IMG/VR virus record: IMGVR_UViG_3300029543_000174 | Span: 1-50,820 of that record | Direction: 5' to 3' (one strand) | Source of the DNA: a virus | Lineage: Duplodnaviria > Heunggongvirae > Uroviricota > Caudoviricetes | Length of the DNA stretch: 50,820 bases | Part shown: positions 28,768-45,159 of the stretch, piece after piece | How positions within the stretch are numbered: the first letter of the stretch is position 1 | Layout: every line of letters begins with the position of its first letter | The notes under the pieces: generated by a model | The model's database searches: none | Seen by the model: only the letters and a program-made list of their open reading frames with translations | Told to the model about the DNA's origin: nothing | Translations under genes and position numbers: made by a program

Positions 28768-28770
28768 TGA

Positions 28771-28811: not shown

Positions 28812-28914
28812 CTATTTCTTAATTATTTTCTTCATTGCTTTCTTCATAACTAAATGAATATACTTCTGTAGGAATATAGTTGATGACTACTGCAAATATG
28901 TTACTCTATGTATC

Positions 28915-29051: not shown

Positions 29052-29297
29052 TATTATTTATTATTCCTTACTCCTCAACGATTATATTGACGATAAAAGT
29101 AAAGTACAGTATACGATTATCATAAAACCACAATTAAAAGCCTGAACAGAAATAGCAGCAGGAATACAACAACACCATTTTAGCAGTAATAGTTCACATA
29201 GCAAAAACCACAAACCTTTAGGTGAACATAACAAGTAAAAGATAATTGAATATAACATTAATACAGTAGAACGTTTCTGTTGAATTTGTAAAATTAT

Positions 29298-29450
29298 CAA
29301 AATGTTTCTAAAAAATTCCACAAACTTTTAAACAATTTTTAAAAGTATTAAAATGATTTTAAAAGTTTAAAAGAAAAAACAGCAAATTTTCAAAAGTATC
29401 AAACGATTTCTAAAAGTATTAAACAAATTTAAAAAACTTTAAAAAATAAA
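29298..29450. repeat. degenerate ~20-bp tandem repeats / phased A-tracts
   Basis: AAACAATTTTTAAAAGTATT, AAAATGATTTTAAAAGTTT, AAATTTTCAAAAGTATC, AAACGATTTCTAAAAGTATT. Confidence 0.55.
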
Positions 29451-30289
29451 ATTAAGGTTGTGATGAAATGCAAGAAGAAGGGCAAGAAATAGTTGACTGG
29501 TACTTGACTAAACAATGATTTCACAGCTAAAAAGGGCTAAATCAAGACCTTTATTAACGATTATTTGGTTGACTCGTAGTTGACTGTATACTTTTAGCAC
29601 TCGGCAAGACGGTAATATGAAGATTGTAAAATCAGTAATCGAACATTTGTGTACTTATAGTGGAGATATATAATTGACTTCTATTTGTGTATATACCTGC
29701 TGCACCTAAAATCGTTGCTCAGAGTGCACATTAGCTGACAAAAAGTGTTAAAATTATACATTTAGTACAATTTTCTATATAGAAAAAGCCTTTCATACTA
29801 TTACTCATTGTAATATTTGAGAATAGGAAAAAAACCGTGGAAAAATAATTAACAGCAGGTAAATAAAAAAAGACTTCACAAGGCTGAAATAACGTTTTAA
29901 ACTGCTCAATGTTATCGTAATTGTCTGAAATATAAAATATTGAAATAAAACGGCGTAGAAAGCCACAAAGAATGTTTAATAAAAATTGTTAAGCGTTGTT
30001 TGCAAAAAAAGCAATAAAAAATTTCATTATTTTCACTAAATTTTCACTAAAAATTCACTAAACTGCGTAAAATATTAAAAATTTGCTTGGTTGTTATTGC
30101 GTATTGTAGTAATATTAAATCGTTCTGTGCAGCAGGCTTGTAAAATTCTTGCATATCTCTTGCATATCGAGATGAGATAATATATACTTTTAGGTAGTAG
30201 ATTATGTAAAAACAGCCTAATGCTAATTCCTGTTCGGGCAAATTGCACCAAATTGAGATTTTCGTTATAATAGGTGCTATTTTGACAAG

Positions 30290-30793
30290 GTGGTATTGGA
30301 TTTTGGAAAGTATCCTGATGGAGAAGTAGACAAACCATTAATCGCTTATTTTGAAAAGAAAAATGATTATGTGAAATTCAGGATAAAATATGATAAAAAG
30401 CAGATAACAAAAGGGAAATTCATAGCAACTCCTGAAGGCAACAATGACTACGGTATCTATTATTTTGTTTCAGATGAAACAGCACAGGAAATGACTCGTG
30501 ATGATGCAGAACACATAATTCAAGTTATTGTTACAAGTTATATAGCTGTTAATGCATTGCTATTGTACGGTAATTTGGTAGATGGCACTTCTACAACGGT
30601 AAGAGCCAAAAGTGATGAAGATGATAAACATTATTTCATCAAAGAATACGATAACAAGCTCTACGCTGTAAGTTCACATACACACCGTTCACCGGAAGGT
30701 ATATTTAGTGTAAGAGGGCATTTTAGAAAATATAAGAAGAGTGGAAAAGTCATTTGGATTGATGAGTACCTAAAAGGCACAGAAAAGGATTAA
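30290..30793 (+). CDS. phage-type hypothetical protein, probably 5'-truncated
   Basis: C-terminal VRGHFRKYKKSGKVIWIDEYLKG motif; no convincing SD, and an in-frame TGA 12 codons upstream. Confidence 0.55.
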   Translation: MVLDFGKYPDGEVDKPLIAYFEKKNDYVKFRIKYDKKQITKGKFIATPEGNNDYGIYYFVSDETAQEMTRDDAEHIIQVIVTSYIAVNALLLYGNLVDGTSTTVRAKSDEDDKHYFIKEYDNKLYAVSSHTHRSPEGIFSVRGHFRKYKKSGKVIWIDEYLKGTEKD

Positions 30794-30838
30794 CCTGCTG
30801 CAAGAGGAAGACTATATATAGTGTATCATTAATTTTAG

Positions 30839-30867
30839 TTGACAAAATATGGGATTGGCGATATTAT
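30839..30867 (+). promoter_or_regulatory. sigma-A promoter
   Basis: TTGACA-17-TATTAT. Confidence 0.6.
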
Positions 30868-30913
30868 GAGAAAAAATGATAATATCGTTAAGATATTAGA
30901 AAGGAGAAATCTT

Positions 30914-31216
30914 ATGGAATATCATGTATATCAGAGAACATATACTGCCGACAGAAAAGGCAAGGATTGGACTGCTGATGAGTTGGATGATTTAACAATG
31001 CAATTGACCGAAGATATGGAAATTGATTGCGGCGCATTTGATGACCAAGCTGAAGCTGAGGAAATGTTTGAAGAATGTAAGGTGGAATGTTCATCTAAAT
31101 ATACCGATGATGATAAAGTGGTATTCGATTACTTAACTTTGGAAGAGGTTGAGGAAGATGCCTACGGTAATATTGAGAGCACAATTGATGCTACTTATGT
31201 TGCACCGGTAGAGTAA
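30914..31216 (+). CDS. small, highly acidic protein
   Basis: ATG 30914 behind GAAAGGAG; very D/E-rich; own promoter and terminator (31241-31271). Confidence 0.8.
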   Translation: MEYHVYQRTYTADRKGKDWTADELDDLTMQLTEDMEIDCGAFDDQAEAEEMFEECKVECSSKYTDDDKVVFDYLTLEEVEEDAYGNIESTIDATYVAPVE

Positions 31217-31291
31217 TTAAATATAAAAAATACAATTTATGCAGAGCTTTTCAATGTTGATAAGCTCTGCTTAATTATTAGGAGATATTAT

Positions 31292-32125
31292 ATGCAAATA
31301 ATAAGTCTTATAACAGCAATTATTTCAATGCTTGCAACAATTATAATTGGAATTTTGCAAGTAATACAAAATAAAAAAATTGATAAACGTGATGAGCAAA
31401 GACGTAAAGATTTAATTTATTCAGAAGCAACAAAGTTTATTACGAAATACAGTTTAGATTATAAATATGACATACAATTACTACCATTATGCGTTATGGC
31501 ATATAAATATAATCCTATTTATCCATATCATAGACAAATATATAGTGAGTTCTGTTCTCTTGTCGAAGAAGTTCAAAATTGTATATTAGAAAGATGTAAT
31601 ATTGATATATCAAGTTCCAAAACAAATAAATTTTATGATAAAATTGTAAAACTTTTAGAATCAACCATTAAAATAAATTACCCTAATGATGACGGAAATT
31701 TATTTCACGATAATGGAAAATATTTTAAGTATTCTTTATCAAAATACGGCAATGAGAAAATACCCGATATTTCTTGTAATGCAGATAAATGGTTTGAAAA
31801 AATAAATGCTTCATCAGATAATACTATGGATTATGAAGAACATATTACAAATTTATTAGCTTATGAAAAAGAACGAAAGCCAATTGAACGATTGATGAAC
31901 GAATATACCAGTATGGGAGTTCCAACTACAGGTGCTGGAACCTTGCTTTCATACTTAGCTTGTATTGTGGCTAAATATGCATTTATTTATTCTCATAATG
32001 ATTTACAAAATGAGATTGGATGTATTGAAGATTATCCTTATGAATTATATATGGAAGATTTATTTTTGGATGCATTGTTTAATATTTACTACATAGCAGA
32101 AAATAAAAAATTAATAGAGAATTAA
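31292..32125 (+). CDS. hypothetical protein with an N-terminal TM helix
   Basis: SD AGGAG; very AT-rich; flanked by hairpins. Confidence 0.75.
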   Translation: MQIISLITAIISMLATIIIGILQVIQNKKIDKRDEQRRKDLIYSEATKFITKYSLDYKYDIQLLPLCVMAYKYNPIYPYHRQIYSEFCSLVEEVQNCILERCNIDISSSKTNKFYDKIVKLLESTIKINYPNDDGNLFHDNGKYFKYSLSKYGNEKIPDISCNADKWFEKINASSDNTMDYEEHITNLLAYEKERKPIERLMNEYTSMGVPTTGAGTLLSYLACIVAKYAFIYSHNDLQNEIGCIEDYPYELYMEDLFLDALFNIYYIAENKKLIEN

Positions 32126-32275
32126 AAATCAAATGATTATATTAAAATAAGGACAACAAGTTTGTTGCCCTTATTTTTTTGCGAATTTTTTGTAAATATT
32201 TCTAAAAATGTTCTAAAAAAAACAAATATTTGCGATATTTAATTGGAAACAAAAATGTTGAAAAAGGAATGATTA

Positions 32276-33037
32276 ATTATTAATAATTTTGAAAGTTATT
32301 TATTTGGATTGATTTTGACAGACGGAAGTATTTATTTAACTACAAGAAATAGAGGACATATTTCAATTGAACTTGAGGCAAACGATATTGAATTGTTGAA
32401 AAATATACAAGAAAAAATTCCTGATTCAAAATTAAACACACGAATCAGAAATACAAATTTTAAAGAAAATTACCAAACAGCAACATGGTCTGATTATCAA
32501 AAGGAATTTAGAGAGAAATTTTTTTCTTATGGAATGCCAAAAAAAGATAAAGGTATTTATGGCACAGTTCCTATAGTAAAATATTCAGAAAACGATTTTT
32601 GGAGAGGTGTGATTGATGGAAACGGAAGTATAGGCTTTACAAGTGACGGTGATCCGTTTATTTCATTAACAACTGCAAGTAAAATTTTAAAAGAAAATTT
32701 ATGTGAACTATTATATAAAAAATTCAATATAAAAAAGAATATTAAACCTAATAAAAGAGATAATGTATATAATATTGTTCTAAAATGTGAAGATGCTATT
32801 GCTTTTTGCGATTTTTTATATAAAAATGCTGAGATATATTTACAACGTAAATATATCAAATACATAGAAATAAAAAAATGGAAAAGAACTAAGAAAAAAA
32901 TATATTCTCAATCATGGACGTCAGAAGAAATAGAATTTATAAAAACACATACTGTAAAAGAATCAATGATTCATTTACAAAGAACAGAAAAATCAATAAA
33001 AATGAAGTTATGGAGAGTCAAACAAAATAATTTATAA
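32276..33037 (+). CDS. free-standing two-motif LAGLIDADG endonuclease-like protein with a C-terminal Myb/HTH-like tail
   Basis: YLFGLILTDGSI (needs an ATT start at 32276 or 32279) and FWRGVIDGNGSI; tail WTSEEIEFIK...RTEKSIKMK. Confidence 0.8.
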   Translation: MINNFESYLFGLILTDGSIYLTTRNRGHISIELEANDIELLKNIQEKIPDSKLNTRIRNTNFKENYQTATWSDYQKEFREKFFSYGMPKKDKGIYGTVPIVKYSENDFWRGVIDGNGSIGFTSDGDPFISLTTASKILKENLCELLYKKFNIKKNIKPNKRDNVYNIVLKCEDAIAFCDFLYKNAEIYLQRKYIKYIEIKKWKRTKKKIYSQSWTSEEIEFIKTHTVKESMIHLQRTEKSIKMKLWRVKQNNL

Positions 33038-33058
33038 TGAATTTGAAAGGATGATAAT

Positions 33059-34303
33059 ATGAGAAATTATAATTTAAAGATATTTACAGAAAACATTGAA
33101 CCTGTGGCTTTAAACCAAATATATGAGTTGGTAAAGCAACCTGCATTTTCTGATTGTAAGGTGAGAATAATGCCGGACGTACATGCCGGCACAGGTTGCG
33201 TAATCGGATTTACAGCAGATTTAGGAGAAAAGGTAATCCCTAATATTGTAGGTGTTGATATTGGCTGTGGTATGCTTACAGCAAAGTTAGGTAAGATAGA
33301 TATAGACTATGCAGAACTTGATAGAGTAATTAGAAATTATATTCCTTATGGAAGAAATGTAAGAGATGATGCAGTTGAATGTATATTAGATGATGATATT
33401 GATAAACTCAGGTGTTACAAACATTTAAAAAATATTAATGGAATTAGATGCAGTCTTGGTACACTTGGTTCTAATAACCACTTTATAGAAGTTGATGAAT
33501 CTAAAGATGGTACAAAATACTTGATTATACATACAGGTAGTCGTAATCTTGGTAAACAAGTTGCAGAGTATTACCAGAACAGAGCCATCGAAGAGATGTC
33601 AGGCAAGGATGAACTTGAACAACAGTGCCAGAATCTCATAAAGCAATACAAAGCTGATGGCAGACAAAAGGAAATTGAAAAAGCCTTAAGTGAACTCAGA
33701 CGGAAGTGGCAAAACAAAAAATTAAATGTTCCAAAAGAACTTTGCTACTTAACAGGTCAAAGCAGACTTGATTACCTTCACGATATGACGATTTGTCAGC
33801 AGTTTGCATCATTAAATAGGCTTCGTATTTTTCTTATTATTGCAAGAGCAATGGGATGGGAAGTTGTTTCAAATGTTGCTATAACTCACGATGCGCCTAA
33901 TTTATTTGAAACAGTACATAATTACATTGACTTCACAACCAACCACGATACTAATATGGTCCGAAAAGGTGCGATTTCTGCCAAAAAAGGTGAATATGTA
34001 TTAATCCCTATGAATATGCGTGACGGATGTATTTTAGGAATAGGAAAGGGAAATGAGGACTGGAATTGTTCAGCTCCGCACGGTGCAGGACGGCTTATGA
34101 GCAGAAGTATGGCAAAAGATACTATTTCTCTTGATGAATACAAAAACTCAATGCAGGGTATCTACACGACCTCTGTGTGCCAAGAAACAATTGATGAGTC
34201 ACCACAGGCTTACAAATCAAAAAATGAAATTGTAAAACTTATCGAGCCTACTGTTGAAGTGATTGAGATTTTAAAGCCGGTATACAACTTCAAGGCAAAC
34301 TAA
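33059..34303 (+). CDS. rtcB: RtcB family RNA ligase
   Basis: MPDVHAG, VGVDIGCG, GTLGSNNHFIEV, HTGSR, HNY, RKGA, SAPHGAGR, DESPQAYK. Confidence 0.96.
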   Translation: MRNYNLKIFTENIEPVALNQIYELVKQPAFSDCKVRIMPDVHAGTGCVIGFTADLGEKVIPNIVGVDIGCGMLTAKLGKIDIDYAELDRVIRNYIPYGRNVRDDAVECILDDDIDKLRCYKHLKNINGIRCSLGTLGSNNHFIEVDESKDGTKYLIIHTGSRNLGKQVAEYYQNRAIEEMSGKDELEQQCQNLIKQYKADGRQKEIEKALSELRRKWQNKKLNVPKELCYLTGQSRLDYLHDMTICQQFASLNRLRIFLIIARAMGWEVVSNVAITHDAPNLFETVHNYIDFTTNHDTNMVRKGAISAKKGEYVLIPMNMRDGCILGIGKGNEDWNCSAPHGAGRLMSRSMAKDTISLDEYKNSMQGIYTTSVCQETIDESPQAYKSKNEIVKLIEPTVEVIEILKPVYNFKAN

Positions 34304-34425
34304 ATCTGTTCTGCCATATACAAACTATAGCAAAAACAAGAGTGGAGAACCTGCTGCTCTTGTTTTTTTGTTTTATTTACTTTTATAAAAAATATTTAAT
34401 TAAAAATTTAGAAAGGAAATTTAAT

Positions 34426-35199
34426 ATGAAAGAATTAATTAATCAAAAAGAAATACTGGAAAATGTGAAAAAAATATTCGAAAATTGCGGATTTCATGGA
34501 ATAACGTCTACTGATAAAAAAGAATTTGAGAATTTACTAATGTCAGTTAAAGAAAATGATACGAAAAATAAAACTGAATTTCCTGATTTTATATCCGAAA
34601 ATGGCTTTGTTGAACATTTTCATGTAACATCCGGCAAATCTACACGTAAAGGTTATGATACAACAACACAAGAATCCAAAATGCAAAAAAGTCATGAATC
34701 TTTTATGAAAAATGTTTCTGAAAAAACATTGGAAACATATAACAATGATGAACCTTGTGAAAGTCAATCAGAAACAGCATTTTTGAGAGAAAATGATTCT
34801 ATAGAAAATTTTCACAAAAGTTTCAAAAGATGTTGGGAAAATCACATAGAACATTTACATAATTACAAAGGAAACAAACATTTATCTTGCTTCCTTGTAT
34901 CATCAGATGATGTTTTTGAAATATATGAAATTGTGCAAAGAGAAGAAGGTATGCTTTTTGGAGATTTAGAAAATAAAGAACCAATAGAGTTTTGTCTTTC
35001 TTATGATTTTGAACTACTTGATTATATATATAAATACCGTGATGATATTGACTATGTTATTTATTACAACAAGCATCGAAACTATTTTGAATTATTAAAA
35101 ATTAAAAACATTCCAGCAATTAAGCAAGTTTTATCTGAACGTATATATGAAATACGCCCTTTACCAACAATGGAAGCTTCAATTACTTATAACATATGA
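34426..35199 (+). CDS. hypothetical protein with a PD-(D/E)xK-like motif
   Basis: FPDFISENGFVEHFHVTS; ATG 34426 behind GAAAGGA. Confidence 0.6.
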   Translation: MKELINQKEILENVKKIFENCGFHGITSTDKKEFENLLMSVKENDTKNKTEFPDFISENGFVEHFHVTSGKSTRKGYDTTTQESKMQKSHESFMKNVSEKTLETYNNDEPCESQSETAFLRENDSIENFHKSFKRCWENHIEHLHNYKGNKHLSCFLVSSDDVFEIYEIVQREEGMLFGDLENKEPIEFCLSYDFELLDYIYKYRDDIDYVIYYNKHRNYFELLKIKNIPAIKQVLSERIYEIRPLPTMEASITYNI

Positions 35200-35235
35200 A
35201 AAACTGTCAACAACAATAAATGAGCATAACAAAAA

Positions 35236-35271
35236 AAGACAAGTGCAGCAGGTTTGCACTTGTCTCTTTTT
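35236..35271. terminator. bidirectional terminator with GCAGCAGG at the loop
   Basis: AGACAAGTGCA-GCAGGTT-TGCACTTGTCT flanked by A and T runs. Confidence 0.75.
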
Positions 35272-35296
35272 ATAATTGTACATATTGATTTTTGAC

Positions 35297-35476
35297 AAAA
35301 AAATAAGCACCGAACTAATCCGGTGCTTTTATATGAAACCAAGAAGGAGGTAGACCGTCCTTGGGTTCAGTTGACTTTAAGAAAGATTGAGTATCTATAC
35401 CGTTTTGTAAATTGAAATTTTAAAATATTATATTAGTCCTGAAAACAGAGTGAATTGACACACAATCTTTCTTTTG
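35297..35476 (-). ncRNA. predicted sRNA A with an anti-SD loop
   Basis: promoter TTGCAA(35510-35505)-17-TATAAT(35487-35482) with TGn; 5' stem AAGAAAGAUUG/CAAUCUUUCUU; hairpin with loop CGGUCUACCUCC; terminator AAGCACCGGA/UUCGGUGCUU; G-U wobbles work only on the minus strand. Confidence 0.72.
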
Positions 35477-35726
35477 TCTTGATTATATCACAAGTTTAAG
35501 GACTTTGCAATATAATCAAAGCAAAAGTGGAAATTATCACATCCGGAATTTAAAACCGTTAAGCCGGAATGTTTATTATTAATAGACCATCTCGTAAATT
35601 TGGTAAAAAGTCAATGGCTGTTTTAAAAAATTGTAATAATTGCAGTTTGTTTGATTCACTTATTGCAAATATATATGCAGGAAATTTTAAAAACAACTAT
35701 GAAATTAATAAAAAGATATTCCACTT

Positions 35727-35933
35727 TTGCACAAATGGATGAAAAAATTAGTTGAAATGCTTAGAACTGGTTTTAAAGAAAAACAATATATCATTGAGGA
35801 TTTAATCAATCCGGGTGCATACTTACTGTCAGGTGCACCGAAGTGTGGCAAAACCATCTTAGCAACACAAATAGCAGTTGCAGTAAATATAGCTAAATTT
35901 CGCATCCATATATATCAAACACCTAAAAGGTGA
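35727..35933 (+). pseudogene. fragment of an AAA_25/RepA-like helicase
   Basis: YIIEDLI.PG.YLLSGAPKCGKTILATQIAVAV, then the frame ends. Confidence 0.7.
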
Positions 35934-35944
35934 TGATAACATTT

Positions 35945-36036
35945 TAAAAGAAAGACAGAAATGATTACTTAAAGAGCAAAAAACACAATGGGAAGCTGTG
36001 ATAAAAGAGGTGACAAGTATCTCCCTGTCTTTCTGT
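35945..36036 (-). ncRNA. predicted sRNA B with an anti-SD-like loop (GUCACCUCUUU)
   Basis: promoter TTGACA(36069-36064)-17-TATAAT(36046-36041); 5'/3' pairing GACAGAAA/UUUCUGUC; inner GGGAG/CUUCCC and GAUA/UAUC; could instead encode a 15-aa peptide. Confidence 0.55.
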
Positions 36037-36049
36037 CTTAATTATACTA

Positions 36050-36065
36050 CACTGAATAGTAGGTG
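36050..36065. promoter_or_regulatory. 16-bp operator CACCTACTATTCAGTG (copy 1 of 5)
   Basis: copies at 36050-36065, 36255-36270 (one mismatch), 37466-37481, 37825-37840 and 38040-38055, each overlapping a -35 box and spacer. Confidence 0.85.
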
Positions 36066-36118
36066 TCAATAGGAAAACTGCGAATTTTTTGCGAACATTT
36101 ACTCCATTATGATTAAAG

Positions 36119-36240
36119 TAAAAAGCACCGGAAAACCGGTGCTTTAAAATTATATAAAACCAAAGAGGAGGTATAGTCTTTAGTTTTTGTTTGATAAGAA
36201 AAGCAAAAGTAAAAATATTAATATTCCCTTTGCTTTTCTA
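36119..36240 (-). ncRNA. predicted sRNA C with an anti-SD loop (paralog of A)
   Basis: promoter TTGACA(36274-36269)-17-TACAAT(36251-36246); 5' stem AGAAAAGCAAAG/UUUUGCUUUUCU; hairpin AAAACUAAAGA-CUAUACCUCC-UCUUUGGUUUU; terminator AAAGCACCGG/CCGGUGCUUU. Confidence 0.75.
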
Positions 36241-36499
36241 ACTAAATTGTAACACACTGAATAGTAAGTGTCAACAGAAAAACTGTGAACTTTTTGCGAA
36301 TTATCCCCTCTAAAAATAATGTTTTTAGGGGATTTTTTCTTTTTGTAAAAGAACTAAAAATTTCATCTCCAAATTTTTAAAATTAACACTTGGAGGAATT
36401 ATATCAGCTACGATTGATGTTCGTAATGCCAGAGATTATCATGCTGCCATTGTAGCTTTTATGTCTTTTCGCAAAACAAAAGCCCGGCATAAGCCGAGC

Positions 36500-36631
36500 T
36501 TAGATATTTTTACTTTCGATACTACTCATTAGAAAATTCAGTTGCTCTCTTGTAAGCATCTGAGGTAAATATTTACGATATTGTTTGAGAACAGTATCAT
36601 TGTTGTCCTTTTTTGTAAACTTAATTCTGAT
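36500..36631 (-). CDS. 43-aa ORF with an ATC start, missing from the ORF track
   Basis: SD AGGAG 7 nt upstream; IRIKFTKKDNNDTVLKQYRKYLPQMLTREQLNFLMSSIESKNI; stop abuts the terminator at 36473-36501. Confidence 0.45.
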   Translation of the reverse strand: MRIKFTKKDNNDTVLKQYRKYLPQMLTREQLNFLMSSIESKNI

Positions 36632-36649
36632 ATTAACACTCCTATATCT

Positions 36650-36982
36650 TTAATAACTTTTTGAACCCGGAATATATTCTTGCATGAGATAATCCCAATT
36701 TACCAAGTATGTACTTTGATTCATTTTTTGTAATGCTCTGAATTTACAAAGTTCACGTAAACGCTCACTTACTTTTGATTGAGATACAGAAAATTTGTCG
36801 ATAATTTCCTTCTGCTTAAATGTAACAAAATAATGATCTTTACATTCATCAAAGAAAAACTTGTTTTTACGAGGTACTACAAGTTCATTATCTATTACTG
36901 CTTTTGGCAATAGATATTCAAGTAGTTTTATGTCGTTCTTTGAATATTGTAACATTTCGTCAATTCTTTCAAATACTTTCAT
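36650..36982 (-). CDS. winged-HTH protein (RepL/MarR-like), similar to 39803-40117
   Basis: KQKEIIDKFSVSQSKVSERLRELC...YLVN; ATG 36982 behind AAGGAGG. Confidence 0.7.
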   Translation of the reverse strand: MKVFERIDEMLQYSKNDIKLLEYLLPKAVIDNELVVPRKNKFFFDECKDHYFVTFKQKEIIDKFSVSQSKVSERLRELCKFRALQKMNQSTYLVNWDYLMQEYIPGSKSY

Positions 36983-36995
36983 TAAAAAATCCTCC

Positions 36996-37430
36996 TTAAT
37001 ATACATCCTGATGGTCCTGCACAACAGAATCATCATTATTAACGTTATTGTTGCCGGGGAAATTGTCTTTGCAAGAATATTGATTGTTGTGTGCTTTTAC
37101 ACGTTTCTTGTATTTGCCGCCTTTAATAATCTTTACAACAGCTAAAACTGCATAGAAAACTGTAAGCGTAAGAGCATACAAAGGAATAGTTTTTACGATA
37201 ACACTAACAGTATTGCTGTAACTTAACAGATTTGCAAATTTTACAAAATGATTTTCCAAATAAGCAAATCCGAAATATGTTACTGCACACCAAATACAAT
37301 GGTATAACATTTTGCCTAAAGCACTTTTGCTCGACATATATTTTGCATTACGTAAAAATAATATTACATTACCTATTACATATATAATTATTATGACTTG
37401 GATTACTTTTACAATAGTTTGAGTATCCAT
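36996..37430 (-). CDS. three-TM membrane protein
   Basis: hydrophobic helices; SD AAGGAG; promoter TTGACA(37485-37480)-17-TATAAT(37462-37457) carries the operator in inverted orientation. Confidence 0.75.
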   Translation of the reverse strand: MDTQTIVKVIQVIIIIYVIGNVILFLRNAKYMSSKSALGKMLYHCIWCAVTYFGFAYLENHFVKFANLLSYSNTVSVIVKTIPLYALTLTVFYAVLAVVKIIKGGKYKKRVKAHNNQYSCKDNFPGNNNVNNDDSVVQDHQDVY

Positions 37431-37555
37431 TTTTTATATCTCCTTTTTACACTATAATTATACCACACCTACTATTCAGTGTCAATGCTGAAATGGTAAA
37501 TATTTCTTTAATAATAGCCATTTTTTGTAAAAAGAAAAAGCCACCAATAGGTGAC

Positions 37556-37777
37556 TTATTTTTTGGTGCTATTTCTTTTCTGAGCTGATTTTCTTTTTTT
37601 AATTTCTTTCCTTATCAGCTCTTTGACAAATTGTGTTTTGTTCGGTAGAATGCCTAAGAACTCAATGATATCGGCATCATATTCTTTGTTCAGGGTAAAT
37701 GTAAATTGTTTTAGATTAGCATTTTTATACTCTAAATTATATTTCTTTTTATCAAATTTTTTTGTTTCTTCTGACAT
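37556..37777 (-). CDS. small ribbon-helix-helix-like DNA-binding protein
   Basis: alternating strand KQFTFTLNK followed by two helices DADIIEFL / NKTQFVKELIRKEI; SD AGGAG. Confidence 0.7.
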   Translation of the reverse strand: MSEETKKFDKKKYNLEYKNANLKQFTFTLNKEYDADIIEFLGILPNKTQFVKELIRKEIKKRKSAQKRNSTKK

Positions 37778-37854
37778 AAATACAATATCTCCTAAAAAAA
37801 TAATTTTTTTAAAAATGGCCTTGACACCTACTATTCAGTGCGCTATAGTATAGG

Positions 37855-37930
37855 TGTAGAGGACGTCAAGCCCCCTCTACTTCATTTAAACACTCTTTGT
37901 TTTTTCCCAGAGACAAAGAGTGTTTTTTCT
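37855..37930 (+). ncRNA. predicted ~75-nt sRNA D
   Basis: promoter TTGACA(37821)-17-TATAGT(37844); hairpin GUAGAGG/CCUCUAC; terminator AAACACUCUUUGU/ACAAAGAGUGUUU plus U run; no ORF. Confidence 0.7.
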
Positions 37931-38068
37931 TTTTTGGGTATTGGAAAAAAATGGTAATTATATAATACTTAATTATTATATCATATTTGTTATAATCATA
38001 CAATTACAAAATTTTATTTTTTTTCAAAAATGACCTTGACACCTACTATTCAGTGCGCTATAGTATAG

Positions 38069-38125
38069 ATGTAACAGAGTTACAGACTTTGTTGCTCCTT
38101 TCTGCTCTTATTAGAGCAACATTAT
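38069..38125 (+). ncRNA. predicted sRNA E, 5' part, with anti-SD CUCCUUUC
   Basis: promoter block 38026-38068 nearly identical to 37811-37853; hairpins GUAAC/GUUAC and UGUUGCUC/GAGCAACA. Confidence 0.6.
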
Positions 38126-38130
38126 TGAAT

Positions 38131-38225
38131 ACAACCGCAGGAACTACGGGGTTAGCCTATTGATACTGTGTTTGTTTAAGAACACTTGAGTAGGAAGCTT
38201 GGCATTCTAATGCGAAGCAGTTCAC
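38131..38225 (+). mobile_element. orphan IS200/IS605-type right end / TnpB omega-RNA-like scaffold
   Basis: AACCGCAGGAACTACGGGGTTAGCCT...AGGAAGCT...GCAGTTCAC; pseudoknot pairing GAACT(38141)/AGTTC(38219); no tnpA or tnpB in the window. Confidence 0.7.
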
Positions 38226-38501
38226 TTTGTTTTTGGTGTTTGTCATTTTTTATTTTCAATGATCTACATCAACTCCTTTTTAATCACTTATTGCCAAATA
38301 AGTGATGATGTCTTTTTTCAAAAAAACCTTTTGATTTTTAAATCGGAAGGTTTTTTTATTTTTTTTGCATTTTTTTAGTAAAAAATTAATTTTTTTTTGC
38401 AAATTTTTATGAAAAAATGAAATATTTGCGATATATATATTGGAAGCATTTCCAAATATATACAAAATGCCAATTGAATGGCAAAAAGAAAGGAACATTT
38501 T

Positions 38502-39053
38502 ATGTTAAAATTTTTTACAAATTTTAAATTCAAAGAAGGAGAAAAGGAAAAAATTCAAGATGAGCTAAGTCGTATTGAAAAACATTTTTCAAAAGAAGCA
38601 AAATTATATTTAAGAATTATGTTTGACGAAAAGAAAGAAATCTATACGTCAAGTGTTACTACTAATTTTGCTAAAAAACTTCTTGTCGGAACAGGTGAAG
38701 GCGTAACGTGTGTTGTTGCAACCGATGAGGCTTGCGATATGCTGATTCGCCAAATCAGAAAGGAAAAGACAAAGAAGTTTGACAAAACCGGCAGAACACC
38801 TCTGTCAGAGCTTGCTGCTGAACAGATTACTTCCGATGAAGTGTCTATGGATGATTTTGAAAAATACGGTATGAGTTCTGATAGAATTACGAAGGTAAAA
38901 AATATTTGTGTAGAACCTATTACTGTTGATGAGGCAATTGACGAAATGGAAGTTCTCGGCAGAGATTTCTTTGTTTTTAACGACCCTGACGGTAATGTTA
39001 ATGTTGTTTACAGAAGAAATAAAAACAAAGGGTTCGGACTACTTAAAGGATAG
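38502..39053 (+). CDS. hpf: long-form ribosome hibernation promoting factor (HPF/RaiA)
   Basis: LSRIEKHF, ATDEACDMLIRQIRKEKTK; C-terminal PITVDEAIDEMEVLGRDFFVF...VNVVYRR. Confidence 0.9.
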   Translation: MLKFFTNFKFKEGEKEKIQDELSRIEKHFSKEAKLYLRIMFDEKKEIYTSSVTTNFAKKLLVGTGEGVTCVVATDEACDMLIRQIRKEKTKKFDKTGRTPLSELAAEQITSDEVSMDDFEKYGMSSDRITKVKNICVEPITVDEAIDEMEVLGRDFFVFNDPDGNVNVVYRRNKNKGFGLLKG

Positions 39054-39078
39054 TATCTGAAAAAAGGAGGATATTTTT

Positions 39079-39459
39079 TTGGAACAAAATTTAAACATTA
39101 ATGACTTATTAAGCTTTAGTCCTATGGATTTAGCTCAAATTTTAAATGATACATTTATTTTTGATATTCCGTGTCAGATTGAAACTGAGCAGGAATTAAA
39201 CGAAGTAGGAAAAATGCTTGCTATTACAAGCAATCAATATTCGTTTTTAACATCAATGTTATCAATTGCAAAAGTGAATGTAAGAAAATATAAGAGAGCT
39301 AAAGCTAAAACAAGTTACGAAGATGCAGTCGATAAAAGGGATATTATTTCTTATACCGTGGATGCTGTAAAATTGCGTCATAAAACTTTATCTCGCTTGA
39401 TTACCGTAAAACAAGAACGTAATAATGAGCTTAATATGTCGGAAAGGAGACAGTTTTGA
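39079..39459 (+). CDS. hypothetical helical (coiled-coil) protein
   Basis: TTG start behind AAGGAGG. Confidence 0.7.
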   Translation: MEQNLNINDLLSFSPMDLAQILNDTFIFDIPCQIETEQELNEVGKMLAITSNQYSFLTSMLSIAKVNVRKYKRAKAKTSYEDAVDKRDIISYTVDAVKLRHKTLSRLITVKQERNNELNMSERRQF

Positions 39460-39806
39460 CGTGTAAAAAAATTAGCTTAAACGAATATTTAATTGAGTAT
39501 GATGCTTTGTTTGACAACAAAATTTGGAAAGGTCATACTCGATGTGATAGTACCAAAATTGATGAATCCTTTGTGAAAATTACAAAAGATTTCATCAAAG
39601 AGGATATTCACAGAAATACCAACTGCCCTTTAGATGAAATTATTATTTCAATACAAAATATTAAATGCATTGGCAAAAGAGTAATAGAACTGTCTAAAGA
39701 AGACACTGTTAAATTTAACAATCTATATGCTGAAGAAATGTTCAATGCTCAATTTCTTAAAGCAGTGAAAAATAACAGGAAAAGTAAAGGAGAAAATATT
39801 CAATGA
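39456..39806 (+). CDS. hypothetical protein
   Basis: TTG start behind GAAAGGAG; 4-bp overlaps on both sides. Confidence 0.7.
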   Translation: MTCKKISLNEYLIEYDALFDNKIWKGHTRCDSTKIDESFVKITKDFIKEDIHRNTNCPLDEIIISIQNIKCIGKRVIELSKEDTVKFNNLYAEEMFNAQFLKAVKNNRKSKGENIQ

Positions 39807-40117
39807 CTAAGTATGAAAAATTAGAGGAATATTTCACAAAAACAGAATTTGCCGTTTTAAAATATTTTGTTGACCATTCAGTACCGCTTAATACTATTGA
39901 CGAAATTCCAAAGAATTGGAGAGATTGGTTTGGTTCAAATCATTTGTATAAATGTGAAGCAAAGCAAGCTGACATCGCCAAAGAATTAGGAATAACTCCT
40001 ACTGCGGTAAGCAGAAGTATAACTTTACTTCGTACATACCAAACCGTCACTAAGATAAGAGGCATTAAAGGATACATTGTCAATAAAGATTGGCTTTATG
40101 ACGAATATCAATATTAA
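39803..40117 (+). CDS. winged-HTH protein
   Basis: KQADIAKELGITPTAVSRSITLL...GYIVN. Confidence 0.8.
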   Translation: MTKYEKLEEYFTKTEFAVLKYFVDHSVPLNTIDEIPKNWRDWFGSNHLYKCEAKQADIAKELGITPTAVSRSITLLRTYQTVTKIRGIKGYIVNKDWLYDEYQY

Positions 40118-40122
40118 AAACC

Positions 40123-40363
40123 TTGACATTAATTCTTATTTGCGTTACTATAACAATAGTAATTATTATTATTTAATTTTATAGTATATTAAGTCAGTTA
40201 TTGCAATTTGCGATAGCTGACTTTTATTAATTTAATAAACAATAGCCGATTAATTTTGTGTATACAAATTTAGTCGGCTTTTTTTGTTTTCATAAGAACT
40301 TTCACATAAAAATTTATGCTCAGTGAAAAGTTCAGTCGTAAGGGCAACGACAGGAGGTATTTT
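40123..40363 (+). promoter_or_regulatory. establishment-type leader L2
   Basis: TTGACA 40123-17-TACTAT 40146; terminators 40191-40225 and 40244-40285; hairpin 40296-40333 containing TTATGCTCA; GTCGT-AAGGGCA-ACGAC 40335-40351 followed by AGGAGG. Confidence 0.8.
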
Positions 40364-40426
40364 ATGAGAACAAAATATTCAACACACTCTTATTTACTAT
40401 ATAGGTTCAAATATAAGAAACTATAA
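40364..40426 (+). CDS. 20-aa ORF (MRTKYSTHSYLLYRFKYKKL), a leader peptide or gene remnant
   Basis: perfect SD AGGAGG; occupies the position where ssb and ardC start in the other two leaders. Confidence 0.45.
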   Translation: MRTKYSTHSYLLYRFKYKKL

Positions 40427-40444
40427 GAAAGAGAGGTGTAATAA

Positions 40445-42592
40445 ATGGAAGAAACTGTAACATTGGTCGGTACACATTCGTACACAATCTATGATAACAA
40501 TGGTTTTTCCATTCAAACAATTAAGCTTGTGGAAGAAGGAGGCAGAATTACTGCTAAAGGCTATAATCTTCCACAAGACCAATATACCTATCAATATAAA
40601 GGAACAATCATTGAGGATAAAAAATACGGAAGACAGTTAAATGTTCAACTGTGTACGCTTTATATCAATGAAAAAGAAGATATTATTAAATATCTTAAAG
40701 AAAATATTGCTGGTATAGGTAAAAAGTACGCTGAAGCACTTTATAAAGCATATGGAAAAGATGTATTCAAGCAAGCTAAAGATTATGATGCTGTATTCGC
40801 AGTAATCAGATCTGAAAAGAAAGCAAAGAAGATAACCGAAAGTGCACAATCACAATTAGTATCTCCTGAAATGTTTGAAATTATTTCCAAATACCAAATA
40901 CAACCAAAAATACTGAACAAATTAGGATTTTCTTTTGAAGCTATAAAGGAGAATCCTTTTATTATGTCCGGTAATGTTACTTTCTATAAATTAAATAGAA
41001 TGGCAATTGATTTTGGCTCGGATTTGATATGTTATGACCGCATAAGAGCAGCAGTAAATTATGTTTTAAATGAACTTATAGGTTCACGAGGACATATGTA
41101 CTATCCTTACGATGAATTTGTTACAGTAACATTAAATCTTCTTAATAAGGGCGTACAGAGAAAATGCTCACTTGATGATTTAAAGAAAACTCTAAGAAAA
41201 ATGAACAACGATCAAGAAATTGTACTGCGTAAAGCAAACAATAAATTAATCATTTATTCAAAGTTTAATTATGAAACCGAAAATATAATTTCAGAAAGCA
41301 TCATAAAAACACTTCTTAAACCAAAGGACAAAATCAGCGTAAGTAAAATTAAAGCTGCTATTAATGAAACCGAAAAAGAATTTGGTATCTCTCTTGCAGA
41401 AAAGCAAGAAATAGCAGTAAAAATGGTAATGGAAAACAATTTTTCAATTATCACAGGTTCAGCAGGTACAGGTAAAACAACTGTACTTAAAACAGCAATA
41501 AGAACCTACGAAAAAATATTCAAATGTGAGGATGAAGACATTCTCTTACTTGCACCGACAGGCAGAGCTGCACAAAGAATGAGTGAGGCTACTATGCACA
41601 ATGCACAGACGGTCCATTCAAAACTTCTTATTGATGAAGACGGTTCAGTTGGTCAGGAAATAGAAGAAAAAATCATTTTTATAGATGAAATGTCAATGAC
41701 AGATGCAAAATTGCTTTCACTCATTTTTAAAAATACTAAAAATGATAATGCTAAATTTGTATTCTTAGGCGATCCTAATCAGTTACCAAGTGTCGGTGCT
41801 GGAAACATTCTTGAAGATTGTATTCTTTCTGAAGTTATTCCTACCACAAAACTTGATGTAATCCATAGGCAAGCCAAAGATTCATTGATCATTAAAAACG
41901 CATTGAATATTTTAAAAGGTAATTCTTCTCTTACTCTTGGTAATGATTTTGATTTTGTAAAATCAAATACAATCAAAGATGATTGTGTTGAAATTTTTAA
42001 AAATGAATTTGCCAAATACAAAAATAATATTATGGCTGTTCAAATCATAACACCAATGAAAACGAGAGGAGATTATTGTCAGGAAACCCTTAATAATGCT
42101 ATTCAAAAATTAGTTAATCCGATAGAAGACGGCGATATTACTTTCACAATAAATAACTATAAATTCCATATCGGGGATAAGGTTATTTGTCAGAAAAATA
42201 ATAAATTATCTAAAAACGGTGATATTGGACTTATCAAAGATATTTATCGTGATGAGGATAATAAGTTGTCTGTCGATATAGACTTCTATAATCACATTAT
42301 TTCGTATACAGTTTCTGAATTAAGAGATTTAAAATTTGCACTTGCTTATGCAATTACAATTCATAAATCACAAGGTTCGGAATTTCCATCAGTTATTATG
42401 CCGGTGGGAAGTGAACAAATGTGTATGCTTCAACGAAACCTTATGTATACAGCAGTTACAAGAGCATCAAAAAAGATGACTCTTGTTGGCAGTAAAACTG
42501 TATATAAAAGAGCAGTTGAAAAAAATGTGAAGCAAGTAAGATTAACTGCATTGAAACAATATCTTGTTAAGGCGTATAAAGAAGCAATCTAA
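40445..42592 (+). CDS. recD2: RecD2-like SF1B DNA helicase
   Basis: HhH GIGKKYA; GSAGTGKTT, LAPTGRAA, DEMSM, GDPNQLPSVGAG, HRQ, YAITIHKSQGSEF, YTAVTRA. Confidence 0.95.
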   Translation: MEETVTLVGTHSYTIYDNNGFSIQTIKLVEEGGRITAKGYNLPQDQYTYQYKGTIIEDKKYGRQLNVQLCTLYINEKEDIIKYLKENIAGIGKKYAEALYKAYGKDVFKQAKDYDAVFAVIRSEKKAKKITESAQSQLVSPEMFEIISKYQIQPKILNKLGFSFEAIKENPFIMSGNVTFYKLNRMAIDFGSDLICYDRIRAAVNYVLNELIGSRGHMYYPYDEFVTVTLNLLNKGVQRKCSLDDLKKTLRKMNNDQEIVLRKANNKLIIYSKFNYETENIISESIIKTLLKPKDKISVSKIKAAINETEKEFGISLAEKQEIAVKMVMENNFSIITGSAGTGKTTVLKTAIRTYEKIFKCEDEDILLLAPTGRAAQRMSEATMHNAQTVHSKLLIDEDGSVGQEIEEKIIFIDEMSMTDAKLLSLIFKNTKNDNAKFVFLGDPNQLPSVGAGNILEDCILSEVIPTTKLDVIHRQAKDSLIIKNALNILKGNSSLTLGNDFDFVKSNTIKDDCVEIFKNEFAKYKNNIMAVQIITPMKTRGDYCQETLNNAIQKLVNPIEDGDITFTINNYKFHIGDKVICQKNNKLSKNGDIGLIKDIYRDEDNKLSVDIDFYNHIISYTVSELRDLKFALAYAITIHKSQGSEFPSVIMPVGSEQMCMLQRNLMYTAVTRASKKMTLVGSKTVYKRAVEKNVKQVRLTALKQYLVKAYKEAI

Positions 42593-42620
42593 TATAAGCC
42601 ATTAAGGAGGATTATATATT

Positions 42621-43004
42621 ATGGCTACAGAAACATTAAAGCGTATTTGCCTTCGTTCAGAAAAAAAGATTGAAATGATTTCAAAACTTTTATCTGATGG
42701 TGAACAAATAAACAAATTTATTATGAGTTCCGATTACTATAGAGAACATTTCTATATCAGTACACCTGAACAGACAGACATTCTGTCTGCAATTGAGGAT
42801 ACACTTCACCGTATGATTGAAGCCGGTTGGTCTGATGATGACATTGCTTTTGTTCTTGATGCACATAAAGATGTGTTTGAAGACACAGAAGATGCAGAAG
42901 ATACAGAAGACACAGATGAAACTATCACACCAATTGATTTGGGCTATTCACTTATTGGTGAAGTTATATTTCACAGAAAGGGGTACAAATTGGAATGTCA
43001 ATAG
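42621..43004 (+). CDS. hypothetical acidic protein
   Basis: SD AAGGAGG; EDT/EDA 9-bp repeats. Confidence 0.75.
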   Translation: MATETLKRICLRSEKKIEMISKLLSDGEQINKFIMSSDYYREHFYISTPEQTDILSAIEDTLHRMIEAGWSDDDIAFVLDAHKDVFEDTEDAEDTEDTDETITPIDLGYSLIGEVIFHRKGYKLECQ

Positions 43005-43342
43005 AAAATTTAAGAACTCATTACCTTTATCAGTTTGTTGGCGGAGAGTTAGATGGTCTTATCTTAAGTTATCCAACGCTTAAGTTAAAAAATGTTATTA
43101 ATGGCTATTCTGAGGATTTGACCGAAAAACGAAATAAAGGCTTTTTGTGTAAGCGTGAAGAACTTGATAATCAGCCGATTATCAAAGGCTATTTAGGACC
43201 TATGTACGGTGGCGATTGCTATTTAGTACATGGTCAAATTAAAAAGTCGTACAAATGCACAGATGAAGTAAAAAAACATAATAAACATATTCATATCATC
43301 AGATATGAAACACAAGAAGTATATGATATGCTTTCTTGTTGA
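42995..43342 (+). CDS. hypothetical protein
   Basis: operon packing; FVGGELDG motif. Confidence 0.7.
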   Translation: MSIENLRTHYLYQFVGGELDGLILSYPTLKLKNVINGYSEDLTEKRNKGFLCKREELDNQPIIKGYLGPMYGGDCYLVHGQIKKSYKCTDEVKKHNKHIHIIRYETQEVYDMLSC

Positions 43343-43360
43343 ATTTTGGAGGAAATTATT

Positions 43361-43768
43361 ATGGCAAAAAACAATTTAACACCTTCCGACTTACTGTCGG
43401 AAGATAATGACTATATTGAGTTTTACGATAATGTATTTGATATGTTTGTTGGTTTGGATTATGTATCCGAAAAGGATCTAAACCGTGAAGCTGATAAATA
43501 TTATTATCGTTTTCTCAATTATCTTAATAATAATGTTCAAGTGTTATCTGTGGCAAATTCTACTTGTGCTTGGACTGATTTTATCAAAAAACATATCAAG
43601 GCTTTTAAAAAGTTTACAAAAGAACATTGGGTACGTACATATAAAGATGATTTGGATGAATTTATCTATCAGTGGATAAAAGAACTGCATCTGTATGGTG
43701 CAGGATATGTTAGTGAAAGTGAATACAAAGCACTTGTTGATATGTTAATTGACCCAAATAATAATTAA
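43361..43768 (+). CDS. hypothetical protein
   Basis: ATG 43361 behind GGAGG. Confidence 0.75.
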   Translation: MAKNNLTPSDLLSEDNDYIEFYDNVFDMFVGLDYVSEKDLNREADKYYYRFLNYLNNNVQVLSVANSTCAWTDFIKKHIKAFKKFTKEHWVRTYKDDLDEFIYQWIKELHLYGAGYVSESEYKALVDMLIDPNNN

Positions 43769-43782
43769 GGAGGAGTTGTGAA

Positions 43783-44631
43783 ATGACACAACCTATTACA
43801 TACACTGCATACAGAATTGCATTGATGATTATTGAAAGCGAAGATTTTGAATTAAAAATTGACAAGGATAAAGACGGCAATAAAGTCTTTAAACTTGTTG
43901 ATGATAATTCAGCAAACTGGGGTGATATTGAGTCTGATGAGTTCTATAATTTGGCAACAGTTATTGACAGATTAGAAGCTTATCACGATGATTATTACTT
44001 CAAGGAATTTGAAGAAAAGCGTAACCCTGATATTTTAAGTGGCAAAATTCTGCCGGATCTTTCGGATGGTAAGCCATTTGAAAAATACAGTGACCTTGCT
44101 GCTATCTGTTGGTTTATCAAAAATTCAGCAGATATTCTTAGTAAAATCACGCCGGATGTGGCTGATGCTTTTGATTATGATATGGCTTTAAGTCTTGTTG
44201 ATAGATATGACCGAGATACTGATGAAGAGTGTTTAGACTATTATGTCAGCAAAATGCTTTTCCATATTTTATTTAAAACACTCTCGGCTTACAGAGTTGT
44301 TGAGTGCAATAATCATATTTATTGTACAGCTTATGATGATGCCAAGCTTTGGAAATCGGACAAGGAATTATGTAATTTGATTTACAAACAAGTTGAAACC
44401 GATTTATGCAATTTTGATGATTGGCTTAATGGGCTTCACTCATGGCTCAAAGAAAATTTTATCTATGAATCAACAAGCAATGATTCAAGCGGTAGAGCTT
44501 ACCGTCAAATGCTTGAAAGAGAAGAAGAACAAATTGTTGATGACCTCAAAGACTTAGGCAAAGAAGGTCATTACTTTGACGAATATGCTTTTGCATATCT
44601 TGGTCTTTTAGACGAGTATGATAAAGCATAA
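43783..44631 (+). CDS. hypothetical acidic protein
   Basis: SD AAGGAGG; D/E-rich. Confidence 0.8.
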   Translation: MTQPITYTAYRIALMIIESEDFELKIDKDKDGNKVFKLVDDNSANWGDIESDEFYNLATVIDRLEAYHDDYYFKEFEEKRNPDILSGKILPDLSDGKPFEKYSDLAAICWFIKNSADILSKITPDVADAFDYDMALSLVDRYDRDTDEECLDYYVSKMLFHILFKTLSAYRVVECNNHIYCTAYDDAKLWKSDKELCNLIYKQVETDLCNFDDWLNGLHSWLKENFIYESTSNDSSGRAYRQMLEREEEQIVDDLKDLGKEGHYFDEYAFAYLGLLDEYDKA

Positions 44632-45134: not shown

Positions 45135-45159
45135 GGAGAATTCTTTTATGGAGGTAAAT

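Follow-up and report, generated by a model that had tools for sequence, protein, structure and literature searches.

Candidate translation-repressing small RNAs in the regulatory hub of a large conjugative element

RoxS/RsaE are C-rich-loop small RNAs of Bacillota; their exposed C-rich loops, with CCCC motifs, pair with Shine–Dalgarno (SD) regions, and their genes are conserved and chromosomal. In the LhrC family of Listeria monocytogenes, four of the genes stand in tandem. Counter-transcripts of the FinP/ctRNA kind are transcribed opposite the leader and ribosome-binding site (RBS) of a functional gene, and in type I toxin–antitoxin systems a small hydrophobic toxin open reading frame (ORF) overlaps or abuts the RNA gene. 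The csRNAs are CiaR-dependent small RNAs of Streptococcus (PMC3091779; PMC4507080). In the part of PMC3091779 drawn upon here, they were predicted from a regulator site, a −10 box, an intergenic terminator and an unpaired anti-SD sequence, and then verified, one of them on plasmid pSt0. The locus considered here lies at 35.3–38.4 kb of a 50,820-nucleotide (nt) stretch of DNA (the window), the first 50.8 kb of IMG/VR record IMGVR_UViG_3300029543_000174. It is a regulatory hub of a conjugative element and contains five short units, A to E. A first-pass annotation of the same DNA knew of no described system with this layout. The layout is nevertheless already described in kind, with csRNAs (PMC3091779) and LhrC1-5 (PMC4132741), as far as the cited parts of these papers go, as the closest precedents.

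As set out in that part of PMC3091779, csRNAs are siblings of 51–202 nt, each with a strong promoter bearing a common regulator site and, at the end, a terminator; their SD complement is unpaired, and a block of translation initiation is predicted for them and in part shown. Units A (180 nt) and C (122 nt) are of such length, and both are terminated. The csRNA promoter has an upstream CiaR repeat, TTTAAG-N5-TTTAAG, whereas here no TTTAAG repeat is present and the shared core lies inside the promoter spacer. In the csRNAs described there, an anti-SD and an anti-start codon stand between two stem-loops, while here the anti-SD occupies a hairpin loop and no CAU is found 5–9 nt upstream of CCUCC in A or C. 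Sequence likeness is absent; the present units belong to a conjugative element, lie inside a dead helicase-like gene, and only A and C are true siblings. LhrC1-5, according to the sections of PMC4132741 cited, is likewise a multicopy family under one regulator, whose CU-rich sites in the loop and terminator region pair with the target SD and impede translation. Each LhrC RNA has three redundant sites of this kind (CUCCC...UUUU), whereas A and C have one CCUCC each, and LhrC is chromosomal and LisRK-induced.

The anatomy of the hub is real and non-random. Because of the analogy with csRNAs and LhrC, SD occlusion is chosen as the likeliest mechanism: A and C, and probably B, may be genuine small-RNA genes that repress translation through an exposed UACCUCC loop. 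This reading is favoured tentatively, at somewhat short of an even chance.

Fold, conservation and possible targets of units A, B and C

A, B and C are leftward promoter-to-terminator units with the following parts.

35297..35476, minus strand: unit A, predicted small RNA of ~180 nt with a 5′ long-range stem, an anti-SD hairpin and a terminator
35346..35352, minus strand: UACCUCC of the A hairpin loop (GGAGGTA on the plus strand), mean probability unpaired 0.68
35305..35328, minus strand: terminator of A, 10-bp stem followed by 7 T
35915..36036, minus strand: unit B, predicted RNA of ~120 nt; a long 5′ stem encloses the exposed GUCACCUCUUU; weak 3′ hairpin
36119..36240, minus strand: unit C, predicted RNA of 122 nt, paralog of A
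36156..36187, minus strand: C hairpin, 11 bp, 10-nt loop CUAUACCUCC, 0.99 unpaired
36122..36145, minus strand: terminator of C, from the terminator scan

The three units have a common layout, with a long-range 5′ stem round a variable insert, then a hairpin and a 3′ end. The fold of A reaches −47.4 kcal/mol on the minus strand versus −41.0 on the plus strand (z −6.0), that of C −39.8 versus −33.2 (z −6.8), and that of B −29.5 (z −4.1). The folding confirms the 5′ stems, anti-SD hairpins and minus-strand advantage of A and C proposed in the first-pass annotation. The predicted probability of the motif being unpaired is 0.99 in C, 0.90 in B, 0.76 in E, 0.68 in A and 0.39 in D. The A loop itself reads UCUACCU and is closed by a weak pair of G–C pairs. 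Terminator-like sites number 14 in the region, against 1.4 expected. Strand-matched ones lie 3′ of A, C, D and E, which supports the terminators annotated earlier for A and C, whereas B has only a weak 5-bp hairpin. The absence of a convincing ORF also stands, since the short ORFs within the units lack both a usable SD and a conserved length; one notable frame, in B, has 15, 33 or 48 amino acids (aa) depending on the contig.

Rfam release 15 gave no match at gathering threshold in 35100–38600 (best Ref70, 25.1 bits versus 115), and only chance-level matches in the region at E-values up to 10. Neither the sequence nor Rfam shows any defining part of a retron, CRISPR, tRNA-like or type I toxin system, and these readings were dropped; for the type I toxin–antitoxin class, no conserved small hydrophobic ORF is present, the B frame being the variable one just described. 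The cis-antisense ctRNA class was rejected as well: the plus-strand SDs lead only 9 codons (A) or 21 codons at 15-nt spacing (C), and the helicase gene is broken.

A and C are paralogs, each with a hairpin presenting UACCUCC and then a terminator. Pairs were counted on the A hairpin aligned with two C variants, i.e. on three distinct sequences; a MAFFT alignment misaligned the two terminators. Over the 11 pairs, 97% of cells are paired, against 44–67% in a slid control with partners moved by 1–3 columns. Two pairs are changed on both sides (G–C versus A–U) and are compensatory, with the loop UACCUCC unchanged, and three one-sided changes proceed via G·U/U·G and would be A·C mismatches on the plus strand. 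Among relatives the C hairpin has a single substitution, C to U facing a G, which leaves a wobble pair solely on the minus strand. The paralogy had been claimed before, as had wobbles that fit the minus strand only; the latter agree with the pair counts and the energy difference between strands.

Relatives were collected by pattern scans and comprise three IMG/VR contigs and four metagenome contigs, 95–99% identical to the window; blastn of 35200–38480 against plasmids and against phages gave no match. In metagenome contigs the module pattern occurs in 16 stretches, eight from the four close relatives and eight unrelated single matches. The alignment has eight rows, seven of them distinct (two are identical over the region); one row ends at 37600 and one lacks 37482–38038. 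Across these eight contigs A shows no substitution column in 180 positions. The non-coding rest of the alignment has 6.0 per 100 (P ~1.6e-5 for A) and coding DNA 3.4 per 100 (P ~0.002). The invariant run extends over 35298–35476 counting all variation and over 35280–35476 counting substitutions only, and the next variable position is 35477, a single base before the predicted start of A. The 3′ module of C (36105–36182, terminator and hairpin) is invariant in the eight contigs, and B has 5 substitution columns in 122. Because of this invariance and of the compensatory and wobble changes, A and the 3′ module of C resemble minus-strand RNA genes under selection.

The rest of C is less constant. 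Since seven of seven relatives carry 137–184 extra nt within the C 5′ stem-loop, giving a form of 260–306 nt, the C of the window is, judged from this alignment, a deletion derivative of the longer form; conserved scaffolds, which the first-pass annotation proposed to look for in related elements, are therefore not seen in C.

Two observations on matches elsewhere concern the A unit and its surroundings. In an unrelated contig of 46% GC (L064), 33 nt at 491–523 are nearly identical to the 3′ arm of the A hairpin and the start of the terminator (ACCTCCTTTTCTTGGTTTTATATAAAAGCACCGG); the second arm of the terminator is missing there, and the likeness is probably due to chance or a fragment. Two wastewater runs with a guessed RNA-Seq label contain 151-nt contigs at 35286–35528, 35858–36008 and 36332–36482 and little else in 26001–46000. 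These contigs are unstranded, the runs were picked by this stretch, and one contig includes DNA of the A promoter, so that they are no evidence either way. A junction of 35488 with 36322 in run X2, whose shorter side has only 21 letters, was left out of account.

The loops of A and C are exactly complementary to GGAGGUA, the usual SD of the element. GGAGG occurs 58 times on the plus strand of the element and 6 times on the minus strand. The longer GGAGGTA has 13 copies, all on the plus strand; ten sit 3–7 nt before ATG and one 6 nt before TTG. The two that remain form the A and C loops, and neither is followed by a suitably spaced start codon. Behind the GGAGGTA of A a TTG follows after 9 nt and opens 9 codons, and behind that of C a TTG follows after 15 nt and opens 21 codons. 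The SD complementarity fits anti-SD function and a relic plus-strand SD alike. A third orphan GGAGG, at 36392 (plus strand) with no start codon behind it, overlaps the minus-strand TGATATAAT extended −10 box and adjoins a plus-strand terminator at 36307–36331; the segment 36300–36480 varies at 7.9 per 100 among relatives.

Possible targets were sought among 133 predicted initiation regions, with controls that keep the CCUCC core and shuffle its flanks. Matches of 9–10 nt exist for A at 1400, 50531, 64827 and 72106 (the last two in the record beyond the window), for C at 47210 and for B at 11149. Those at 1400, 50531, 47210 and 11149 agree with RBS matches reported before, but they do not rise above the shuffled-flank controls. 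The number of matches of at least 9 nt is equalled by 4% of control trials for A, 53% for C and 10% for B, the counts for B and C thus not being significant; for A this means 5 matches against a control mean of 1.1, the 4% being uncorrected for three tests. A panel of RNAs with differing specificities, as first envisaged, is thus not indicated: the loops match the ordinary SD, and with RBS matches at chance level there is no evidence for distinct specificities. Duplex energies among hub RNAs and leaders gave a best z of −2.9, with long loops.

Promoters, neighbouring units and the element

Promoters were scored by their match to the consensus over the 12 positions of the −35 and −10 boxes.

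35510-35482, minus strand: promoter of A, 10/12, TTGCAA, 17 nt, extended −10 TGTGATATAAT
36069-36041, minus strand: promoter of B, 12/12, carries the shared core
36274-36246, minus strand: promoter of C, 11/12, with TG; shared core at 1 mismatch
37821-37849, plus strand: promoter of D, 11/12, carries the shared core
38036-38064, plus strand: promoter of E, 11/12, shared core
37485-37457, minus strand: sixth promoter, 12/12, drives a protein operon

All five near-consensus sigma-A promoters listed in the first-pass annotation are present, that of A reaching only 10/12 with its extended −10; the sixth was unlisted. In the whole element (114,820 b) 16 sites score at least 11/12, versus a shuffled mean of 10.3, and 6 of the 16 cluster within 2 kb at 36069–38036. 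The 20-mer core TTGACACCTACTATTCAGTG has five matches at up to 3 mismatches versus none in 100 shuffles. It is common to the promoters of B, C, D and E and to the sixth promoter and is found nowhere else in the element. The shared part, 16–20 nt long, lies between the −35 and −10 boxes, and core-bearing promoters read TTGACAC-CTACTATTCAGTG-...-TATAAT. At the sixth promoter the core has the plus-strand orientation seen at D and E, so that it is inverted with respect to its own transcription. The core is likely an operator, and its position inside the −35 to −10 spacer suggests repression. Co-regulation, annotated for all five units, is limited to B–E and the operon promoter because the A promoter lacks the core. 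Instead, the A promoter forms a palindromic back-to-back pair with a plus-strand promoter at 35487–35516 (inverted repeat I8). The promoter blocks of B and C are 66-nt duplicates (83% identical), those of D and E 55-nt duplicates (95% identical). The core 16-mer occurs in 25 stretches of IMG/VR, among which the only relatives are those of the three contigs; the other stretches have no −35 box, and most precede a coding sequence with a GxGKT-type Walker A motif.

One relative, OLRZ01005838.1, is without 37482–38038 and has thereby lost the 73-aa gene, the D promoter and D. Its join (4160–4176, window 37465–37481/38039–38055) falls inside the 17-nt core of two promoter copies, so that the promoters of the operon and of E now overlap. 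Repeat-bearing cassettes that behave in this way are known from T4-type phages as PeSL cassettes; as described in the cited portion of PMC2839356, they combine strong sigma-70-like promoters with terminator stem-loops and mediate modular shuffling. The likeness is one of behaviour only, with repeats of 55–66 nt and the deletion 37482–38038, joined within the core, in one of seven relatives; PeSLs flank protein genes of virulent phages, and functional RNAs are not proposed for them in that portion of the paper.

The remaining features of the hub are as follows.

35727..35933, plus strand: N-terminal fragment of a decayed AAA_25 helicase-like gene, 68 aa, Walker A, Pfam PF13481
36650..37036, minus strand: weak winged-helix protein of 128 aa (113 aa from an inner ATG), weak Pfam helix-turn-helix matches below cut-off
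36996..37430, minus strand: 144-aa protein with three hydrophobic stretches (by inspection), no family, first gene behind the sixth promoter
37556..37777, minus strand: 73-aa basic two-helix protein, AF2 mean pLDDT 67.9, helices 31-43 and 46-70
37856..37932, plus strand: unit D, ~75 nt, hairpin GUAGAGG-N11-CCUCUAC (7-bp), then a 17-bp terminator at 37888-37925
38071..38365, plus strand: unit E, structured RNA of ~300 nt, 17-bp terminator at 38320-38357
38478..39053, plus strand: HPF-like gene (ribosome hibernation factor), long form, Pfam PF02482 and PF16321

Two of the proteins are candidate regulators. The 128-aa winged-helix protein, which like the 144-aa protein is encoded behind the sixth promoter and for which no homologs were found outside its own cluster, is a candidate for binding the operator. 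The 73-aa protein is a candidate repressor; it has no family in profile scans and no sequence relative in PDB, and we infer that it belongs to the ribbon–helix–helix type.

D and E had been taken for silencers like the rest. D folds at −28.8 (z −7.2) and is placed between its own promoter and that of the 73-aa gene, which are divergent. Its inverted repeat could serve as an operator just as well as form an RNA hairpin. Of the five units, only D (GCCCCCUC) resembles RoxS/RsaE, and its motif is half paired (0.39). For D, a short by-product of the divergent promoter pair or an operator hairpin located there is the likelier reading. E (−85.7, z −6.6) had been given 160+ nt; because it runs to the terminator at 38320–38357, it is ~300 nt long and ends beyond 38125, where the region annotated at first closes. 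The first gene after E, 113 nt past the terminator, is the HPF-like gene, whose match to NCBIfam yfiA is below cut-off. It opens a long plus-strand gene run, and the scan found no promoter of at least 9/12 between it and the E terminator. E looks like a terminated leader, and a role as leader or attenuator for the rightward array is more likely than one as a silencer. A regulated promoter, a structured leader of several hundred nt, a terminator and a long gene array likewise characterize pLS20-type conjugation operons, known for a leader attenuator and conAn antitermination, as far as the parts cited describe them (bioRxiv 10.1101/2025.11.24.689506; PMC8191782). The difference is that the first gene behind E is HPF-like and that no convincing antiterminator pairing was found in E: its CUCCUUUC pairs with the terminator GGAAGG only if the 5′ arm is blocked (−75.0 versus −86.9 kcal/mol). 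Upstream of the HPF-like gene, 50 nt at 38397–38446 (around GAAATATTTGCGATATATATA) are 84% identical to positions 4646–4695 of an unrelated Clostridia island, L012, ~310 nt upstream of an intact AAA_25 gene; the likeness may reflect a shared promoter or regulator site.

That AAA_25 gene, between integrase-like genes of an island in a Clostridia metagenome-assembled genome, is the one intact copy found, and its upstream region differs from the hub. In the window, the N-terminal fragment is 88% identical to full-length proteins of 350 aa, and unit B with the 3′ module of C occupies the former middle of the gene. AAA_25 pieces also occur in relatives (L005 1638-1811, L006 1642-1827). The extra insert of their C includes 86–88 nt that correspond to codons ~238–267 of the gene, as compared in L005, L006 and L009; this 30-codon piece, in relatives only, is 88.6% (L005, L009) or 97.7% (L006) identical to L012 5713-5800. 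Lineages differ in their alleles of both AAA_25 pieces but agree to at least 99% in the flanking RNA modules. Relative to the leftward promoters, the AAA_25 fragments are in antisense orientation; no helicase sequence is present in A or in the conserved 3′ module of C. Descent from lost plus-strand genes, against which the small RNAs were to be weighed according to the first-pass annotation, is therefore partly seen in the setting (the broken AAA_25 gene), but not in A or the C module. Comparison of the two helicase fragments with plasmids by tblastn gave no match, and searches for distant relatives with the intact AAA_25 protein, the RecD2-like helicase and the closest representative of the latter, P0005 (47% identity), turned up no further locus among viral contigs.

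The record as a whole (GC content 29–35%) is classed in IMG/VR as a provirus. A Pfam scan of 109 of its ORFs (in sets of 30, 25 and 54) found a type IV coupling protein at 25377–27527, ArdC with a metallopeptidase domain, PcfJ and a VirB11-like ATPase, together with sortase, SpaA/thioester and BspA-type surface proteins/adhesins, SSB, DnaN, RNase H and two DNA methylases, and no phage structural family. Because of these conjugation-type matches and the lack of phage structural families among the scanned ORFs, the record is read as a large conjugative element of ~115 kb. This bears out the mobile nature of the DNA noticed at first. The plus strand holds nearly all genes of the element, and the hub is the sole place with three genes and several promoters pointing leftward.

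Some features outside the hub deserve mention. The 285-aa gene at 34342–35199 (plus strand), left neighbour of A, is missing from the relatives, where other ORFs occupy the position; it looks like a variable cargo slot bounded by the bidirectional terminator of A. Further left, a LAGLIDADG homing-endonuclease-like ORF (32309–33037, plus strand) immediately precedes an RtcB RNA ligase gene (33059–34303, plus strand). A DUF3800-I RNA (Rfam RF02969; 90.2 bits versus a gathering score of 44.2) is found at 13820–13936 (minus strand), at the 5′ end of a DUF3800 gene (13113–13964, minus strand).

Competing explanations and biological meaning

In the proposed mechanism, the RNAs of A, B and C would be made, and a repressor encoded by a neighbour (the 73-aa or the 113–128-aa protein) would bind the shared core. 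Upon de-repression the output of B and C would increase along with that of the rightward master promoters of D and E, A being constitutive, and the loops, as exact complements of GGAGGUA, would occlude RBSs as csRNAs or LhrC do. Several results weigh against it. Known related contigs are only 8 (7 distinct), all 95–99% identical, and because relatives are few and close, covariation rests on one paralog pair; 54 of 500 shuffles equal the A/C pair count, although this control is weak with three sequences. A is not unique in its invariance, since a second substitution-free block of 190 nt (37397–37586) spans the sixth promoter with its flanks. In the A motif the final two C are paired (probability unpaired 0.09–0.14). 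Nor are the motifs of B and E conserved: contig 183299 changes the former from GUCACCUC to GUUACCUC and deletes four bases, CUCC, from the latter. In the target analysis, controls reach an equal best match length in 21–53% of trials, and the maximal length is never significant; outside AT-rich runs, no exact complementarity of at least 14 nt to the element was found. None of the sequencing runs on record as RNA carries the stretch. Finally, the units sit inside a rearranged AAA_25 pseudogene, and since GGAGGTA is always on the plus strand, the strand of true SDs, the loops could be relic SDs.

In an alternative view the RNAs are by-products and relics without function in trans. Promoters would be repeated as carriers of operators, with several repressor sites over 2 kb for tight control or looping of the switch, terminators would stop useless transcripts and shield the convergent rightward genes, and GGAGGTA would be left over from plus-strand RBSs whose genes disappeared as the region decayed. 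Such an origin is possible, though it appears doubtful. It accounts for the plus-strand location of all 13 GGAGGTA, ten of them true SDs 3–7 nt before ATG, for a third orphan GGAGG at 36392 in variable DNA, and for an AAA_25 gene that is broken, with its middle replaced by B and C material. Operator copies are spread over 36050–38055, the C of the window lost 137–184 nt with the locus retained, and terminators that insulate against spurious transcription are known in conjugative elements (PMC8955417, PMC11658703, in the parts cited). However, A has no operator and yet 0 substitutions in 180 positions, and an insulator needs a terminator only, whereas the hairpin is kept by compensatory change with a fixed loop. 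Neither SD has a start codon at a usable distance (TTG at 9 nt in A, at 15 nt in C), and the wobble pairs favour the minus strand. Alternatively, the RNAs are functional by another mechanism, as antisense or maintenance RNAs tied to the helicase gene, the SD complement being only one part of a longer pairing. They would then descend from AAA_25 counter-transcripts or target, in trans, the intact gene carried by islands residing in the same cell. This we consider rather unlikely. The C of all seven relatives does contain the antisense of an AAA_25 piece (in the three compared, 86–88 nt, 88.6% identical to L012 5713-5800 in L005 and L009 and 97.7% in L006), read-through of the weak B terminator would be antisense to the first 68 codons of the gene, and the A promoter stands back to back with one that faces it. 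The divergence of fragment alleles between lineages, next to RNA modules at least 99% alike, points the same way. Yet the C of the window has lost the helicase fragment, the resident gene is dead and leaves nothing for control in cis, A and the C 3′ module hold no helicase sequence, and no longer target was found inside the element.

Two further proposals are improbable. In one, the hub consists of PeSL-like recombination cassettes, portable blocks of homology that shuffle or delete neighbours, with RNA incidental. The duplicated blocks of 55 and 66 nt, the join of OLRZ01005838.1 (without 37482–38038) exactly in the 17-nt core of two promoter copies and the replacement, in relatives, of the gene adjoining A (34342–35199) agree with this, and PeSLs do mediate modular shuffling, as the cited portion of PMC2839356 describes. 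Recombination needs repeats only, however, which leaves the invariance of the repeat-free A and the compensatory upkeep of the A/C hairpin unexplained, and only one such deletion is seen among the 7 relatives. By the other proposal, which is a long shot as well, the hub would be a repressor-gated RNA weapon. Small RNAs fired together with the element's ribosome-hibernation factor gene would throttle translation, and cassettes of sister elements would transcribe, in antisense, a captured piece of the replication-helicase gene of a rival island (86–88 nt, up to 97.7% identical), with RNA-based exclusion of competing elements as the outcome.

The locus also shows how RNA genes of this kind can originate and move, as promoter, hairpin and terminator modules within, and reshuffling, a dying helicase gene. 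If the favoured reading of A and C as translation repressors is true, i.e. if both are expressed and act, small RNAs that repress translation would be part of a conjugative element itself, next to the switch of its main operons. The type of control known from csRNAs and LhrC in chromosomal stress regulons would then reach further, to the establishment of plasmids or the manipulation of hosts.

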